Shown here one piece after another: positions 5,060 to 54,245 of a stretch of DNA of 64,000 nt. The translations under genes were made by a program, and so were the position numbers. The stretch comes from a virus (taxonomy: Duplodnaviria; Caudoviricetes): positions 2,918-66,917 of the IMG/VR virus record IMGVR_UViG_3300001528_000230, one strand, 5' to 3'. The notes beneath the pieces are model-generated. The model did not search any database. It was not told where the DNA came from and saw only the letters and a program-made list of their open reading frames with translations. Positions within the stretch are counted from its first letter, which is position 1. Each line of letters begins with the position of its first letter.

Positions 5060-5328
5060 CTACCAAGCAGGGGTGTTACTTCTATGCAATCAAACGAGTA
5101 GACGATAGCACTTACTATAACTATCTGTATAAAAACTTCATGAAGTTACATCAAACCACAACGTTGTATTCATCAAGGGGTAGAGCCTCAGAACAGCTCG
5201 ACCAATGTTTACAAGCTATGTATTATAGACATTTGTATCACCAAAACAAGGATTTAAAATTTAGTGATTTCTTAGAACAAAACAAGGGTAAACTTCAAGT
5301 TGCTACCCTTTGGTTGGGCGAGGTGTAA
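5056..5328 (+). CDS. Hypothetical protein (90 aa)
   Basis: ATGA overlap with the SLT stop codon. Confidence 0.65.
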   Translation: MTTKQGCYFYAIKRVDDSTYYNYLYKNFMKLHQTTTLYSSRGRASEQLDQCLQAMYYRHLYHQNKDLKFSDFLEQNKGKLQVATLWLGEV

Positions 5329-5330
5329 CT

Positions 5331-5957
5331 ATGGTTAAAGTCATGGGTGTCGACTATAGTGCAAACTTTACAGGTGTAGTCTATGATGGACCACAAGATA
5401 AATCCTATTGGTTTACATCAACTTTAAAACGAGATAGAGATAACTGTTTTAACTGTACATTTCTACCAAAGGATTTAAGTACGGTTGAAAAAGTTGACAC
5501 GGTTTGTAATAACATCTTTGGTATCATAAATGAGAGTAGACCCGATTTAGTAGCCATTGAGTCACCAGCCTTTATGGGTAGTAACCAAACAGCTGAGTTT
5601 CAAGATGGTTATGCTATTATTAAATATGTTCTACGCACTATGGGTATTAACTATATATTGGTTCCACCTATATCGTTAAAACTGTTTGCAAGTGGTAACG
5701 CAAAGGGTGAAAAAATAGATGTAGCTCAAGGGTTAAAACGAGATTATGGATGCGACTATTTTGAGGTAACATCACATTGGGATAACCTTTTTGATGCCGA
5801 AGCCTTGTATAGAATAGCATCTTGTTATAGTACCCCAGAGGTGATACCAGAGTTACAGTTGTATAAACAACAGGTATTATACGGATTGCTAGGTGATACC
5901 AAAAAGTTAAAAGAAGTTAAAAAGTTAAGACAAAAGGAGGGTAAAACAAATGGATAA
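5331..5957 (+). CDS. RuvC-like Holliday junction resolvase
   Basis: VMGVDYS, LVAIESP, VPPISLKLFASGNAKGEK, DNLFDAEAL acidic motifs. Start moved to ATG 5331 (GAGGTG RBS). Confidence 0.8.
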   Translation: MVKVMGVDYSANFTGVVYDGPQDKSYWFTSTLKRDRDNCFNCTFLPKDLSTVEKVDTVCNNIFGIINESRPDLVAIESPAFMGSNQTAEFQDGYAIIKYVLRTMGINYILVPPISLKLFASGNAKGEKIDVAQGLKRDYGCDYFEVTSHWDNLFDAEALYRIASCYSTPEVIPELQLYKQQVLYGLLGDTKKLKEVKKLRQKEGKTNG

Positions 5958-28817: not shown

Positions 28818-29537
28818 CTATTTTTTAAGCCAAGCTTCATAGGCTTTTACTAATTTGTTATAATCGTTTTGTTTTAATAAATAGTCGTATAAATCTTGTT
28901 TATCTAAATAAATCTGGTCTACCACATCGGACATACAAGATATGATTAACTTCATACTGTTTTTATCAACTACGTTATACTGACTATGGTTATCACGCAA
29001 ACGGTAGTTCTCACGGATATCATCTCTTAGCATTGTATAGATTTCGTTATACAATGTTTTCCAACTTGGGAGATAGTAAAACCCGTTGAACTCAAACTCT
29101 TTTTCAAACTTTGCGTTCCACTCGTCAGGTATTAAATCTGTGATTAAATGTTTTTTGTATTCCAAAACATTTGCTACCCATTGGTTTGTATTTGAGTCAT
29201 ACTCCCAGTAGTCTCCATCAGGTTTATTAGCTCTAACCGAGTCAGTTGAGGCATATATTTCAGGGATACTACCCAAAAAGTTTATAACTTCTTTTGACTC
29301 AGTGGTGGTATTATAATAGGTTTCACCTCTGTGGTCTTCAAGTTTTTTCCATTTGTTGCCAGCCCATACGATAGCATACCCTTCGGTTAACTCTGGAGGT
29401 GCTACTGTTGTTGCATAAGCTGGGATTATAGGCTCATCAGGATTAAGTGGGTTTTTATCCGATGTGCTTTTATATAAAAACTCTTTACTTATAGGGTCGT
29501 ATAAATATATGTCTACTTGTTTATATGTTTCAACCAT
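28818..29537 (-). CDS. Tail fibre assembly chaperone (lambda Tfa-like)
   Basis: YLYDPISKEFL...IPAYATTVAPP..GYAIVWAGNKWKKLEDHRGETYY is the Tfa signature. Confidence 0.85.
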   Translation of the reverse strand: MVETYKQVDIYLYDPISKEFLYKSTSDKNPLNPDEPIIPAYATTVAPPELTEGYAIVWAGNKWKKLEDHRGETYYNTTTESKEVINFLGSIPEIYASTDSVRANKPDGDYWEYDSNTNQWVANVLEYKKHLITDLIPDEWNAKFEKEFEFNGFYYLPSWKTLYNEIYTMLRDDIRENYRLRDNHSQYNVVDKNSMKLIISCMSDVVDQIYLDKQDLYDYLLKQNDYNKLVKAYEAWLKK

Positions 29538-29649
29538 ACAGTTTATCCTTTGTTATATCTCTATTATAGTGCTACAAATAATGTTCACAAACCGACTATA
29601 TTACAGGGGCAGGTGTAATTCACAGTGGTTTATCGCTAATTTAGACCGA

Positions 29650-29877
29650 TATCAACCTGATGGTTTACCAAACCTAGAGGGTAGATTCTGGGGTGGTATG
29701 GGTACCGATATGGATGGTAAACTATTTGCAAATCAATACAGAGTTAACTCTTATGATGGTAATGGTCCATACGGTTTTGCTTATAGCTTTAATGCCTCTA
29801 GGTATAACTCAATCTATGGTAACTCTACACACGTACAACCTATGAATGTTAGTATGTTACCTATTCTAAAATATTAG
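29650..29877 (+). other. Silent alternative tail-fibre tip cassette A (75 aa, no own start)
   Basis: YQPDGLPNLEG...NASRYNSIYGNSTHVQPMNVSMLPILKY*, inverted relative to the fibre gene; begins at the shared 18-bp site. Confidence 0.88.
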
Positions 29878-29903
29878 GTAAACATTAGCGTGTGATACCT
29901 CGA

Positions 29904-30152
29904 TATCAACCTGATGGTTTGCCTGAAATCTCTGGTTCAGCTGGTAATATATCTCAAACTTTCGCAGAAGACGGTTGGACCAATGGCTGTTTTTACAAAG
30001 GTGAATCTAGTGCAGGTCATACCCCTGTTAAAGTTGATGGTAGTAGAACAGGGATTTTAAATTTTCAAGCTTCACGTTCTAGCTCAGTTTACGGTAAATC
30101 CAGCAATGTACAACCTAAGAATGTGTCAATTCTACCTATCTTGAAATATTAA
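29904..30152 (+). other. Silent alternative tail-fibre tip cassette B (82 aa)
   Basis: YQPDGLPEISG...QASRSSSVYGKSSNVQPKNVSILPILKY*; stop codon overlaps the stop of the expressed fibre tail-to-tail (AAATATTAATATTT). Confidence 0.88.
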
Positions 30153-31525
30153 TATTTAAGGATTGGCAATACGTTAACGTTTTTAGGTGTTACATAATTT
30201 GATTTACCATAGATTGAGTTACTATTTGAAGCGTTAAATCCTACGATATCACCATAATTATTACCAGACGAATACTCAGGATATGTATTATTAGTAACTG
30301 TATAAAATGCCCCTTGTGGATTTACCGTCTCAGCTTTAAATCCTATAGAGCCTGTAATATTTGGTAAACCATCAGGTTGATATGCACCCACTGTGGTTGC
30401 ACCTCTATCGGATTGTAAATCTGCCCCTCTTCTAAACACACCTCTTAAATCAGGGATTGTAAATGTGGTTGTGCCGTTGCCTGTACCATAATAAGCGTGA
30501 GCTGTAGAAGGGATATCACTTTGTTCTTTAATCAAATTGTTTGTTACAGCCCAAGTGTATAAATCTGAGAAAGTATCACGAGAAAGCTCTGCACCATTTG
30601 CGATAATAAACCCATCAGGTGCTTGTGTTCCTGTATAATCCATAACACTACCAACTGGAACGGTTTTATTAGGTGGTGTAGCTTTAGCTTTTAAAATAAG
30701 TTTAAGTGCTATGTTTCTCGGTGTTACCCTAGAAGAACGACCATAAATACCGTTAGACCAAGATGCGTTAAAAGATAAGTCACCAGAAGCAGGTGCACCA
30801 GAACCAGCATTACCACCGTGAGAAGATGAACGCAAAGCTCCACTAGCTTGGCTTGGATTTAGCCCTGAGTAAAAACCTAACCAACCAGTTATGTTAGGTA
30901 AACCCTCTGTTTCTTTTCTACCCACATTATCTGTGCTAGATGCGATTTTAACAAACTGGTCTCTCAAATCAGCTATAGTGAATGTGGTTGAACCATCGCC
31001 TGTACCAAATAGTTTACTATCACCGATTAACTCGTTATCAACAGCGTATTGGTATAAGTCTGCATAGGTTTCACGAGATAAGGTTTGACCTGTTGGTTCA
31101 ATAAAGTATTCAGGTGGACGTGTACCACTCCACAACATCATACTACCTACTGGTAAATCATAAGAGATAATACGAGCATCTTCTGCTACCCCTTTTGATA
31201 CAGATAGTACACCACTGTTGGTAATATCTAAACCGTAGCCTACCTTGATTTGACCAATGGTTGTAGGTGTAGCTATTTTGGTTTCTAACAACAACTTGTT
31301 TTCATCTGCTGTTTTTTCAGCATAGTTAATATGTTGGTTAAAATAATTGTATAACCAGTTGGCTTGGTGTGCATCGGGTACTGAATCAGTTAAGGATTCA
31401 TCCTTGTTTCTAAAACCTTTTTTAAAGTTGTACTCATCAAGAGGTATTAACTTAGGGTCGTCTAAACCGAAGTCATATTCTCTTAAATCGTATATTCCAG
31501 ATGGTTTATTACTAGGGTATGCCAT
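30149..31525 (-). CDS. Main tail fibre with two tail-collar domains and a variable C-terminal tip
   Basis: Two Phage tail collar motifs (PVGSMMLW...TLSRETYADL...GDGSTTFTIADLR; PVGSVMDY...GNGTTTFTIPDLRGVFRRG), each followed by a GLPNITG...NAS...IYG..S..VTP.N domain. Confidence 0.9.
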   Translation of the reverse strand: MAYPSNKPSGIYDLREYDFGLDDPKLIPLDEYNFKKGFRNKDESLTDSVPDAHQANWLYNYFNQHINYAEKTADENKLLLETKIATPTTIGQIKVGYGLDITNSGVLSVSKGVAEDARIISYDLPVGSMMLWSGTRPPEYFIEPTGQTLSRETYADLYQYAVDNELIGDSKLFGTGDGSTTFTIADLRDQFVKIASSTDNVGRKETEGLPNITGWLGFYSGLNPSQASGALRSSSHGGNAGSGAPASGDLSFNASWSNGIYGRSSRVTPRNIALKLILKAKATPPNKTVPVGSVMDYTGTQAPDGFIIANGAELSRDTFSDLYTWAVTNNLIKEQSDIPSTAHAYYGTGNGTTTFTIPDLRGVFRRGADLQSDRGATTVGAYQPDGLPNITGSIGFKAETVNPQGAFYTVTNNTYPEYSSGNNYGDIVGFNASNSNSIYGKSNYVTPKNVNVLPILKY

Positions 31526-51314: not shown

Positions 51315-54185
51315 TTAGTTCCATTTACCGTTGCTTACCGTAATAATAGGTATATCTGGGCAGGCACTATAACCGATTTCACCCACTGGTGCAAAAGCCA
51401 TTAAAACAGCATCGGCTAAATCTGGTGATTCTTTAATCTTGAGTCTCATACTGTCTTTGTCTAAAACTTGGATTTTACCCGTGTTGTTTTTCTTCCAAGT
51501 AGCACACAATAGGTGTTTCTTGAGTTTATCACTATTAGGTAGTAAAACAGGGTATTTAGTCGTATACTTATTGAGTAAATTACGCATATTAAACCAGAGT
51601 TCATCCCTCTTACGGTTATATGTTTGTTTTAATACTTTATCGTTTTCTTCATCCTCATAGGATAATAACTCTTCTTTTGGTAGACCTGCCCCACCCCCTG
51701 ACTGAATAGGATTTACAACCATATCGTATACCATAGCAAGGTGGTCATAAACTGGTTTACCAACACCATCTCGTTCAATATTACAGTAATCACAATGGTA
51801 TTCACGGTATAGCTTTACAACTAATTCTTCAAACTCAGGTGCAGACACATTGTTAATCCTTTCGAGGTATATAACTTTGTTCCCATCTCGTATACAAATA
51901 GAGTAGAAGTCTCGACCTGTACCACCCGAGATGTCTAATCCCATACTTCTTATACCCGATACGTGAAAACTAGGGTTATTATAATTGTTCATGCTGGTTT
52001 CCAAGTCTTTGCTACTAATAACGTTAGCACTGTCTGCTGTTGGAAACTCAGCTAAAACACGGGTTTTAAACTCATAGGATTCAGGGTTCATACCACATTT
52101 TACAAGTGTTTGGTAGGCAGAAATAGGGTTAATCATAGTATACGGAAGCTTGTCTAGGACTGCATCTTCCCACAAACCAGCTTCACCCCTTGCTTTACTA
52201 GCGTAGTAGTCTGTACCACAGTATCTATCCAGCTTTTTAATCCAGTGGTTATAATCACCCTCGGGTGCTAACATATCCTTGAGTGTAATCCCAGTTTCAA
52301 CAAAATTCGGGGTTTCAAAAGCAGAGACGGATATTTTAGTAAAAGGAGAATCTGGGCTAAAACTATTATAGAAGTTACCCGAAGGTCCGTCTGGGAGGGT
52401 TGTATTACCTAAGAGTATAAATTTACATTTACCACCTTGGAATACACCTTCAAACCCCGAATATGTTGACTCTGGTATACCTTGAGCTTCATCAAATACA
52501 ACCATAAGGTTTTTTGCGTGAATACCTGAGATTGCGTTACAATTATCGGTTGCAATACCCATGATGTAAGACTTTTTGTTGAACCAATACTCTGCTACAT
52601 TGGCTGATTCACTAAAGTTCTTGGATAAAAACGAAGCATTTTCACCGAATTGGGATTTAACATAGTTGTCTGCCCTGTCTGCAAAATCCTTGATATTAGC
52701 GAAAATAGAACGTCTAATCTGTGAAAAGACAGGTGCAGTTATAATAATTATGGTATCATTATCTGGGAGTTTAGACACGTTGGTAAAAAAGTACCAAAAG
52801 GCTGTAGCACCAACGATAAACGAGTTATGGTCATAAACTTCTGTTAAATAAGTATGAGTATTATCTACTTCGATACAAACAGTGGGTTGTAATCCAACAT
52901 TTTTAATGCTTTGAATACGCTCCCACATAAAATCGGGTGGGCAATTCAAGTATTGATACTTTTTGATTCTACGAGTGGATTTTAACCTAGCTGACTCTAA
53001 ACACTTATTAACAGCTTTTTCCTTACCGTAAATCCCTATTTGTTCACAAAAATCTATAATACTTTCTCGTTTAGCTATGGATAATTCCCAAGCATCGAAA
53101 ACCTTGCCACCACATTTAGAAGGTTTATGTCGAGTCCACGCTTCGATGCCAAAACGCATGAGTAATAACCTAATTTGTTGAATCAAATCGTAATTAGCGA
53201 GGGTAATACCTATCTTTGGTTCTAAAAAATCCGATTTCCATTCAGGGTGTCCTTCGTGTACTCTTTTAACTGTTCGGGTAACAGCATACCCGTCGCAAGC
53301 AAAAAACCTATTGAGTATTAATGCAATTTGGTGCAAAGGAAGACGTCCTACAAACTCTGGCATTAACTTTTCGGTTGACTTATGACCTGCTAAACCCCAT
53401 TGTCTAACAAGTTCTAAAACAGGGTTGCCACCTTTGGTTCCATCGCCTCTAACACTATAAGTATACTCTCTAGTTTTATTAACTTCTGAACCCAAGTTTT
53501 CACAAATCTGGATAAATTCTTTAAGCTGTTTGTTGTCTTCTTGGGTAAAAACAACAGAGGTTGTAGCTCCACCATCACCCAATATATAACCTAATAGTTT
53601 GGCTTCGTCATCTGTAAAATCAAACTTTGTAGGCTCTACTCTGTGGATTTTAGGAACCAAGATATAGTCACCTACTTCTAAATCCTCACAAGCAGTCCAA
53701 TCGTAAATAATAGGTTCTAGTGTTAATCTTCTACCATCAGGTAATACCCTATTACTTTTCTCTATTCTGGCTTTATAAAGTGGGTGGTTGTGGGTTCTGG
53801 TTATAATCTTGCCTGATTGCAACTTGATTTCGTAACACTCTTTTTCGCCATTATCTATAGCACGAGCTGTTTCGGAATATTGGGTATCAGTGTCTGGGTT
53901 GTAACTTAAAATATTAAACTCTTTGTCGATTAAGTCATAATTTTTAACTATTGTTCCATCGCCCAAAAGGCTGAAACCCTTGCTACACGGGCATTTCCCA
54001 ACACTATTACTGGTTTTAATACTTATCCTGTTGTTTTTACAAATGGTGTCTAACATCTTTCTTTGGTGTAACGGCATAGTAATACCTAACACCTCTTTAA
54101 AAAACATTTCTGGGTTCTTCTTCCATATAACCCTCTTTTTAGCAAACTCTCTTAGGGTTTCTTCTGTTGTCGGTTTTTTAGCCAT
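51315..54185 (-). CDS. terL: Terminase large subunit precursor containing an intein
   Basis: Spliced Walker A NSVGK|SF, Walker B VVFDEAQG, nuclease MGLDISGG and PDLADAV. Start ATG 54185 fits the AAGGAG RBS better than TTG 54194. Confidence 0.92.
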   Translation of the reverse strand: MAKKPTTEETLREFAKKRVIWKKNPEMFFKEVLGITMPLHQRKMLDTICKNNRISIKTSNSVGKCPCSKGFSLLGDGTIVKNYDLIDKEFNILSYNPDTDTQYSETARAIDNGEKECYEIKLQSGKIITRTHNHPLYKARIEKSNRVLPDGRRLTLEPIIYDWTACEDLEVGDYILVPKIHRVEPTKFDFTDDEAKLLGYILGDGGATTSVVFTQEDNKQLKEFIQICENLGSEVNKTREYTYSVRGDGTKGGNPVLELVRQWGLAGHKSTEKLMPEFVGRLPLHQIALILNRFFACDGYAVTRTVKRVHEGHPEWKSDFLEPKIGITLANYDLIQQIRLLLMRFGIEAWTRHKPSKCGGKVFDAWELSIAKRESIIDFCEQIGIYGKEKAVNKCLESARLKSTRRIKKYQYLNCPPDFMWERIQSIKNVGLQPTVCIEVDNTHTYLTEVYDHNSFIVGATAFWYFFTNVSKLPDNDTIIIITAPVFSQIRRSIFANIKDFADRADNYVKSQFGENASFLSKNFSESANVAEYWFNKKSYIMGIATDNCNAISGIHAKNLMVVFDEAQGIPESTYSGFEGVFQGGKCKFILLGNTTLPDGPSGNFYNSFSPDSPFTKISVSAFETPNFVETGITLKDMLAPEGDYNHWIKKLDRYCGTDYYASKARGEAGLWEDAVLDKLPYTMINPISAYQTLVKCGMNPESYEFKTRVLAEFPTADSANVISSKDLETSMNNYNNPSFHVSGIRSMGLDISGGTGRDFYSICIRDGNKVIYLERINNVSAPEFEELVVKLYREYHCDYCNIERDGVGKPVYDHLAMVYDMVVNPIQSGGGAGLPKEELLSYEDEENDKVLKQTYNRKRDELWFNMRNLLNKYTTKYPVLLPNSDKLKKHLLCATWKKNNTGKIQVLDKDSMRLKIKESPDLADAVLMAFAPVGEIGYSACPDIPIITVSNGKWN
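52824..53993 (-). mobile_element. Intein (390 aa) with LAGLIDADG homing endonuclease in the TerL P-loop
   Basis: Starts Cys (CPCSKG), block B TRTHNHPLY, LAGLIDADG blocks LLGYILGDG and LNRFFACDG, ends His-Asn followed by Ser+1. Confidence 0.92.
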
Positions 54186-54245
54186 AGTATACAATTCTCC
54201 TTAGTACCCCTATTATAGTAAAAACTATCACTTTACCAATTAGGG

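Follow-up and report, generated by a model that had tools for sequence, protein, structure and literature searches.

Probably invertible cassettes offer three alternative tips to one tail-fiber gene of an uncultured gut phage

In the 64-kb stretch of viral DNA analyzed here (the window, taken from the 66,917-bp IMG/VR virus record IMGVR_UViG_3300001528_000230), a tail-fiber gene ends in a tip of which two further versions lie inverted, and without starts of the usual kind, immediately downstream. We read this array as a set of invertible cassettes that gives one tail-fiber gene three alternative receptor-binding tips, and put the probability of this reading at about 0.88, a figure meant for the switch itself and not for its catalyst. 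The record is estimated to be 62% complete, and its source is an uncultured gut phage with a whole genome of about 110 kb.

The array is organized around an 18-mer, ATATCAACCTGATGGTTT, which occurs at 29649-29666 (+), 29903-29920 (+) and 30366-30383 (-) and at no other site in the 64 kb, even when up to 3 mismatches are allowed; three 18-mer matches were reached in 0/100 shuffles. We refer to these copies as A, B and E, respectively, the last lying on the minus strand within the expressed gene, where it supplies codons 382-387 (YQPDGL) of a fiber of 458 amino acids (aa). An 11-nt core, GATGGTTTRCC, is confined to those same three places. Copies A and E form a perfect inverted repeat of 24 nt (29649-29672 / 30360-30383), B and E one that is perfect over 18 nt and then 78% identical over 36 nt, and A and B are direct repeats, matching in 22/23 nt and lying 254 bp apart. 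Within the window's array, these crossover repeats are the only perfect inverted matches of at least 14 nt.

Each repeat heads a tip. All three tips terminate in LPILKY plus a stop codon and have in common the C-terminal frame NAS..IYG.S..V.P.NV..LPILKY, with pairwise identities of 44-47% over the whole tips and quite different centers. At the DNA level, agreement is concentrated in the repeat. Pairs of tips have the same codon at 6/6, 5/6 and 5/6 positions of the site (16/18 overall), whereas conserved residues outside the site use the same codon in just 15/30, 15/35 and 16/31. Under the codon usage of the phage, agreement of all three copies across YQPDG and the TT of the Leu codon would arise by chance with a probability of ~0.0017. 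The internal tip-like domain of the same fiber (around residue 208, GLPNITG) carries no copy of the site. Much of this layout had been set out in a first-pass annotation made from the letters alone, and its description held up throughout: three identical sites, 24-bp identity between A and the expressed copy, tips of 77, 82 and 75 aa in a common frame around different centers (as the translations show), synonymous codons beyond the site (about half of the conserved residues share a codon), and a homologous first tip domain without the site.

The flipped state is found in nature. A protein search with cassette B returned an 81-aa open reading frame (ORF; P0123) in which tip E stands behind the same four residues as cassette B does in the window. 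Two contigs, L013 (ENA ERZ27279254) and L014 (Logan SRR11880841), are ~94% identical to the window over 9 kb; window positions 29921-30365 (445 bp) match them at 94.4% in reverse and at 55% forward, whereas both flanks are 93-95% identical in the forward direction. The breakpoints of this inversion fall inside the 18-mers. As a result, the fiber of these strains is 463 aa long with tip B fused in frame (78/82 residues identical), and tip E sits silent in the B slot. In a third strain (L040/L041; ~91-92% identical), the three tips are intact and arranged as in the window. The constant part of the fiber is 92-97% identical in strains L013 and L040. An assembly artifact is an unlikely source of the flip, because the 18-24-bp repeats are shorter than the k-mers used (k141/k119, as the contig names imply, and k=31 for Logan) and reads span the junctions.

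A sister lineage (L016-L021 and L032; contigs of 110-117 kb), whose fiber is ~51-55% identical, provides further arrangements. Its array comprises four tips, namely tip 1 (+), a repeat-less orphan tip (-), tip 3 (+) and the expressed tip (-), with three copies of the repeat TACCAACCAGATGGTTTACC. An inner 473-bp segment is inverted between L016/L021 and L017-L020 within flanks that are 99.4-99.8% identical, such that L016 and L021 express one tip and L017-L020 the other. In L032, the entire 1.05-kb array is inverted, which is the counterpart of an exchange between A and E. L016 and L017 are 0.34% apart and in opposite states; L016 and L021 are 1.9% apart and in the same state; and the contig closest to L021 is L018, which has the opposite arrangement. 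Since arrangement is incongruent with the relatedness of the flanks, at least two independent inner flips must have occurred among the six contigs. Two arrangements are thus seen in the window's lineage and three in the sister lineage, so that comparing cassette order in related genomes, as the first-pass annotation had proposed, did reveal alternatives.

As judged by sequence, the same layout appears to recur in related gut phages. L037/L038 possess a two-tip version with the repeat TACCAATCTGATGGTTTACC and the motif YQSDGLP. The repeat versions of the different lineages (TATCAACCTGATGGTTT, TACCAACCAGATGGTTTACC and TACCAATCTGATGGTTTACC) differ at 2-3 positions, and the copies within each genome are identical. 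In addition, a tip profile run over public assemblies collected 484 short tip-like ORFs; among 120 inspected, a subset (~10 with a YQPDGLP-type motif) starts 2-7 residues before the motif and therefore looks like silent cassettes called as genes.

Protein-level selection on the silent tips, which had been proposed from codon use, is borne out by the strain comparisons. Tip A, which is silent in all three strains, shows 7-10 synonymous and 1-2 non-synonymous changes per strain pair, corresponding to a ratio of non-synonymous to synonymous change (pN/pS) of 0.03-0.08. Between strains, tips B and E range from 0.03 to 0.20 (tip E, 0.03-0.09), and the constant part of the fiber from 0.10 to 0.15. 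No stops or frameshifts occur in the silent tips of any strain. These patterns indicate that the silent tips are under strong purifying selection. Never-translated DNA would not be expected to look like this, which is why we regard tip A as a functional alternative.

In the mechanism that we propose, the codons of the YQPDGL linker double as an 18-24-bp repeat, one copy of which lies in the gene, while each start-less tip is headed by another in inverted orientation. Reciprocal exchange between the gene repeat and repeat B would flip 480 bp (29903-30383) and fuse tip B in frame; exchange with repeat A would flip 735 bp (29649-30383) and fuse tip A. In either case, the displaced tip would fall silent. 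The tips presumably differ in receptor specificity.

The assignment of the gene as a tail fiber is based on a PF07484 Collar match above cut-off (E=9e-20), with two Collar domains in all, on matches to the PHROG tail fiber and tail collar fiber families, and on its place after the genes for baseplate J and a DUF2612 wedge protein. In an AlphaFold model (93-row alignment; mean predicted local distance difference test score (pLDDT), 84), residues 284-458 form a confident collar domain, a low-confidence linker holding YQPDGL (pLDDT 63-65) and a four-stranded tip. Using VIA-align, the model matched the tail fiber of cyanophage A-1(L) (Z 10.4; root-mean-square deviation (rmsd) 2.4; 92 aligned residues), the receptor-binding domain of T4 gp12 (residues 332-525; Z 8.3-8.7; rmsd 2.8-2.9; 94-99 aligned) and the gp37 tip (Z 8.2); in Foldseek alone, the same structural matches were weak. 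The gene product is thus a Collar-domain fiber whose C-terminal tip is similar in fold to the receptor-binding domain of gp12, the short tail fiber of T4. Because YQPDGL lies in the linker between collar and tip, the crossover point would coincide with a domain boundary and the exchanged unit with the receptor-binding head. By sequence, tips fall into two classes (seen in L016/L017, L037, P0045, P0064, P0073, P0078, P0090, P0096, P0097, P0100 and P0113): most start GLPNITG and a minority GLP(N/T/D)HxH, and both can share one array. The latter motif resembles the metal-binding HxH motifs of T4 gp12 and gp37.

The tail-fiber assembly gene lies outside the invertible DNA, so that one assembly chaperone would be common to all three tips, probably working on their conserved C-terminal frame. 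A promoter-like site just upstream of it might free the assembly gene from read-through across the array, a weak suggestion given that promoter-like sites are no more numerous in the region than in shuffles. Coordinates of the features are collected in Table 1.

Table 1. Features of the tail-fiber array, in window coordinates
Feature	Position	Strand	Remarks
Whole expressed fiber gene, 458 aa	30149..31525	-	77-aa tip beginning YQPDGLPNITG
Constant part of tail fiber, residues 1-381	30384..31525	-	N-terminal attachment part, two Collar domains, the first followed by the fixed internal tip-like domain
Crossover repeat E	30360..30383 (18-nt core 30366-30383)	-	In YQPDGL(PN) codons; perfect 24-nt match to site A; one end of the inversion in L013/L014
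Tip E, currently expressed, 77 aa including site codons	30149..30365	-	Stop codon 30149-30151
Crossover repeat B	29903..29920	+	Other end of the inversion in L013/L014
Silent tip B, 82 aa including site codons	29921..30152 (frame 29904-30152)	+	Tail to tail with fiber gene, stop codons overlapping
Crossover repeat A	29649..29672 (18-nt core 29649-29666)	+	Perfect 24-nt match to E
Silent tip A, 75 aa including site codons	29673..29877 (frame 29650-29877)	+	Frame intact and position conserved in three strains
Promoter-like site just upstream of assembly gene	29563..29590	-	TTGTGA-16-TATAAT, 10/12; weak
Tail-fiber assembly (chaperone) gene	28818..29537	-	phrog_105 tail fiber assembly, E=7e-23; outside invertible DNA

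Several observations weigh against a working switch. The nearest other relatives (L006, L007/L008 and L012) have no cassettes, the assembly gene following directly after the fiber, which means that the array is dispensable and that cassettes are gained and lost. The evidence for switching consists of differences between strains, not within one sample. Of the inversions predicted by the first-pass annotation, that between E and B exists in L013/L014, but a state with tip A expressed was not seen in this lineage. Nor did any recombinase come to light: six-frame searches of the whole 66,917-bp record gave no match to PF00239 (control genomes respond; the record is ~62% complete) or PF00589, the 60 window ORFs scanned (most of those of at least 100 aa) included none of the site-specific recombinase families of Pfam or PHROG, and no invertase was found in 30 kb around the sister-lineage array, a region holding DnaE, DnaB, thymidine kinase, primase, SLT, a PDDEXK nuclease and a diversity-generating retroelement (DGR), the first four of which were reached in a relative of 115.7 kb. 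Similarly, PF00239 was absent among the array neighbors in L016-L019, L032 and L039, and PF00589 from the annotated neighbors of related arrays. Some of this could be explained by a fossil array, in which one or more ancient rearrangements left paralogous tip remnants and arrangements differ by descent, with no switching going on. Relatives without cassettes, variants known from between strains only, and two states in the window's lineage that are seen only in strains ~6% apart in DNA would all be expected from such a history. However, remnants should not have kept the low pN/pS values and open frames described above, nor repeat identity against synonymous drift, and the states of the sister lineage are incongruent with flank relatedness at a divergence of just 0.3-1.9%; we consider a fossil very improbable. 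Less probable still, indeed barely credible to us, is that the cassettes are independent small genes for free-standing tip-like proteins and not silent gene ends. In favor of this view, such cassettes are picked up by gene callers (P0123 to P0125 and ~480 similar short ORFs), and in a distant group (L027-L031) tip-like ORFs carry their own TTG within the repeat. Yet the same DNA is fused in frame to the fiber in L013, both cassettes face the fiber operon head-on, and no ribosome-binding sequence was seen at the sole start of cassette B (a GTG four codons upstream) or at the ATG 23 codons ahead of the repeat of cassette A. The first-pass annotation had named own starts and accumulated stops as what would tell against silent gene ends; the strains have no such stops, and the potential starts are those just described.

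As for the catalyst of the invertible array, we see an even chance of a dedicated site-specific recombinase acting in trans, encoded either by the host or in the ~38% of the phage genome that lies beyond the record; it is favored because directly repeated sites, which ought to delete, are retained and because the homology is short. General phage or host recombination on short perfect homology comes next, as a serious possibility with the odds nonetheless against it. Here, recombination-dependent replication, template switching or host RecA would act on the 18-24-bp inverted homology without a dedicated invertase, and host-range selection would keep the repeats identical and make rare products visible. 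Such exchange is favored because no enzyme was found in 67 kb plus 30 kb and because the repeat drifts between lineages while staying identical within a genome, even losing the AACC/GGTT dyad in L037. The repeats are also the only long perfect inverted matches in the window's array and exceed the 11-bp rix sites of a recombinase-driven system (PMC6109161). In addition, functions of general recombination are at hand: the window encodes a RuvC-like Holliday-junction resolvase (5310-5957 (+); phrog_159, E=1e-18), and a PDDEXK_1 nuclease (L016:363-1439) occupies the matching place in the sister lineage. On the other hand, 18-20 bp is short, being at or under the usual minimum for efficient homologous exchange. 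Moreover, deletion between the direct repeats A and B, and likewise between those of tips 1 and 3 of the sister lineage, should be as easy as flipping between inverted ones, but every strain keeps these direct repeats, and an 18-bp inverted repeat between tip 1 and the orphan tip is unflipped in seven contigs, though such a flip would be selectively silent. An unrecognized enzyme among the unannotated ORFs appears improbable. Overall, the facts fit a trans-acting recombinase that tolerates or co-evolves with changes in the repeat, and they fit short-homology exchange as well. The broader proposal that a clade of virulent-looking gut myophages of ~110 kb flips a gp12-like tip without a dedicated serine or tyrosine invertase, by general recombination on 18-24-bp selected in-frame homology or by an unrecognized recombinase, is tentative and, on balance, unlikely.

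The site itself offered no further lead to an enzyme. The first-pass annotation had not recognized its sequence, and we found no significant likeness to Mu gix: the best ungapped match to either boundary of the Mu G segment was 13-15/28, which 13% of shuffled sites equaled. We accordingly rejected a gix-like site, which a GGTTTAC half-site had suggested. We also rejected the AACC-TGAT-GGTT dyad as evidence of a recombinase site, since preferred codons account for it and L037 (CAATCTGATGG) no longer has it.

By analogy, the array would work like the G segment of Mu, the C segment of P1 and especially Min of the plasmid-prophage p15B, as well as the Rin shufflon. In Min, Mu G/Gin and P1 C/Cin, the 3′ part of a tail-fiber gene is swapped by inversion at intragenic repeats, with the silent alternatives inverted downstream, and Min offers more than two alternatives, as seen here. 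The Mu locus that we inspected comprises S/S′, U/U′, gin and the 34-bp repeat. However, these systems are characterized by an abutting serine invertase gene, 26-bp gix/cix/mix sites, an assembly gene for each variable part and segments of at least 3 kb. The present array, by contrast, has no PF00239 gene, a site that is not gix-like, cassettes of 75-82 codons, and a single fixed assembly gene outside it; its fiber is of the Collar/gp12 type, those of Min, Gin and Cin of the S/H type. Thus, of the features of the serine-invertase class, in-frame intragenic inverted repeats were found, and an adjacent PF00239 gene and a 26-bp gix/hix-type site were not.

Similarly, of the features of tyrosine-recombinase shufflons, the array shows at least three repeat copies heading C-terminal cassettes and several natural arrangements, with no adjacent PF00589 gene. 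The R64/IncI1 shufflon (Rci, sfx, pilV) likewise selects the C-terminal adhesin segment of one gene through multiple inversions, and its repeats, at 19 bp, are similar in size to those described here; it differs in serving a plasmid pilus adhesin and in having an adjacent tyrosine recombinase, Rci, a type of gene not found here. Closer in setting is the Rin shufflon of Bifidobacterium dnaJ2 prophages, a system of temperate siphophages of Actinobacteria in which a tyrosine recombinase flanks the cassettes and the rix sites are asymmetric and 11 bp long (Mavrich et al. 2018, PMC6109161). Like our array, Rin places several short repeat-headed C-terminal receptor-binding cassettes behind a constant part, and its variants are seen across related genomes; unlike Rin, our array has no PF00589 gene, has repeats of 18-24 bp and belongs to a large, virulent-looking myophage. 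The term shufflon, used in the first-pass annotation, is therefore apt as an analogy, but the Rci or Rin recombinase that defines such systems is not in the DNA searched. Since the defining recombinase and site were looked for and not found, we do not count the array as a member of the Mu G, P1 C, Min or Rin systems.

The nearest precedent for an inverted locus without a recombinase comes from the bifidophages Bb423phi2 and 689b-1, between which a ~500-bp segment (a small gene and the 3′ end of its neighbor) is inverted at an 8-bp repeat with no recombinase beside it, and for which an invertase in trans was proposed (PMC6109161). That locus has two alternatives and genes whose functions are unknown, whereas the array described here belongs to a clear fiber with three tips and comes with documented selection and recurrence. 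A survey of bacteria found tail-fiber, tail-fiber-assembly and DUF2612 genes to be enriched at programmed inversions (PMC9881135); the window's fiber gene sits between a DUF2612 gene and an assembly gene.

The record has 35% G+C. Replication, nucleotide and lysis genes of the window include those for a primase, thymidine kinase, SLT lysozyme, the RuvC-like resolvase and a deoxynucleoside monophosphate kinase, together with ThyX and an amidase; a tRNA search of the window found none. The primase gene runs on into the 2.9 kb of the record outside the window, where the only other contents are a gene for a DnaB-type helicase and a single frame of 137 codons without annotation. A long minus-strand structural block encodes the large terminase, a Mu-type portal, tail proteins, baseplate J, the DUF2612 wedge protein and several fibers. 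An intein (Intein_splicing, E=1e-7) splits the large terminase gene (51315-54194 (-); 959 aa) and includes a homing-endonuclease domain of the LAGLIDADG type (PF14528, E=1e-12); the C-terminal end of the protein matches Terminase_6C. In L006, the closest cassette-less relative, an IS605-type OrfB/TnpB gene (411 aa; L006:3643-4878) that is absent from the window is inserted in the baseplate module.

Relatives are scarce. No GenBank phage matched at the DNA level, proteins were at most 35% identical, and no cultured relative was found; IMG/VR holds hardly any relatives either. A scan of IMG/VR for the exact site returned nothing beyond chance hits to YQPDGF in unrelated proteins and two loci that have a single copy and no tips, and the same scan of JGI metagenomes returned one relative, the cassette-less L012. 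The relatives come from pig gut (L008) and other assemblies, and the related contigs of 110-117 kb look like whole genomes. Among species-representative genomes, one binned phage contig lay inside a metagenome-assembled genome labeled Oscillospiraceae, which is too weak a basis for naming a host.

Some related loci show features of their own. The orphan tip cassette of the sister lineage (L017:10237-10509 (-), L032:10566-10826 (+) and L015) has the head ..AKRVPNITG and no crossover repeat. Its 18-bp perfect inverted repeat with tip 1 is TACCCAATATTACTGGTA, and its central loops vary between strains with both ends conserved. In the distant third group (L027-L031, contigs of 1.4-2.2 kb, plus a 13.3-kb contig), three tip-like ORFs of 84-92 aa on both strands have their own TTG start inside a 21-28-bp repeat, TTGAAGGTTTTAATTGGACAA (LKVLIGQ..), and follow a 627-aa gene to which they are not fused; such a layout may represent either a shufflon or several small genes. 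Compared with L027, L030 lacks 77 bp within the middle cassette, and no gene is called there in L030. We rejected one further candidate as a fiber array, P0168 (L035:9763-10231), in which adjacent 76-77-aa paralogous ORFs of a 233-kb phage contig score against the tip profile amid small early-type genes, away from any fiber.

The sister lineage additionally carries a DGR (L016:4311-7517; also L017, L018, L019, L032 and L039), consisting of a 384-389-aa RVT_1 gene and a 351-aa Mtd_N-like target gene. It lies ~2.5 kb from the tip array and acts on another gene. With a DGR and an invertible array together, the sister phages would have two systems that vary receptor-binding proteins. Among the window ORFs scanned, there was no match to RVT_1, and the tip did not qualify as a DGR target.

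Programmed swapping of tail-fiber ends has been known since Mu and P1, so the principle is not new. With no invertase beside the array or within 67 kb, the present case raises the question of whether a lytic phage can rely on trans-acting or general recombination for a programmed switch. It also exposes an annotation error, since silent tips are entered in public assemblies as small hypothetical proteins. What the array adds is a natural case, and a clean one, from an uncultured and apparently lytic clade of large gut phages, with flipped states, recurrent flips and selection on a tip never seen expressed. The exchanged unit would be minimal, a single small domain cut exactly at the linker behind the collar and served by one fixed chaperone, and the crossover may thereby mark a natural joint for tip exchange on gp12-type fibers.

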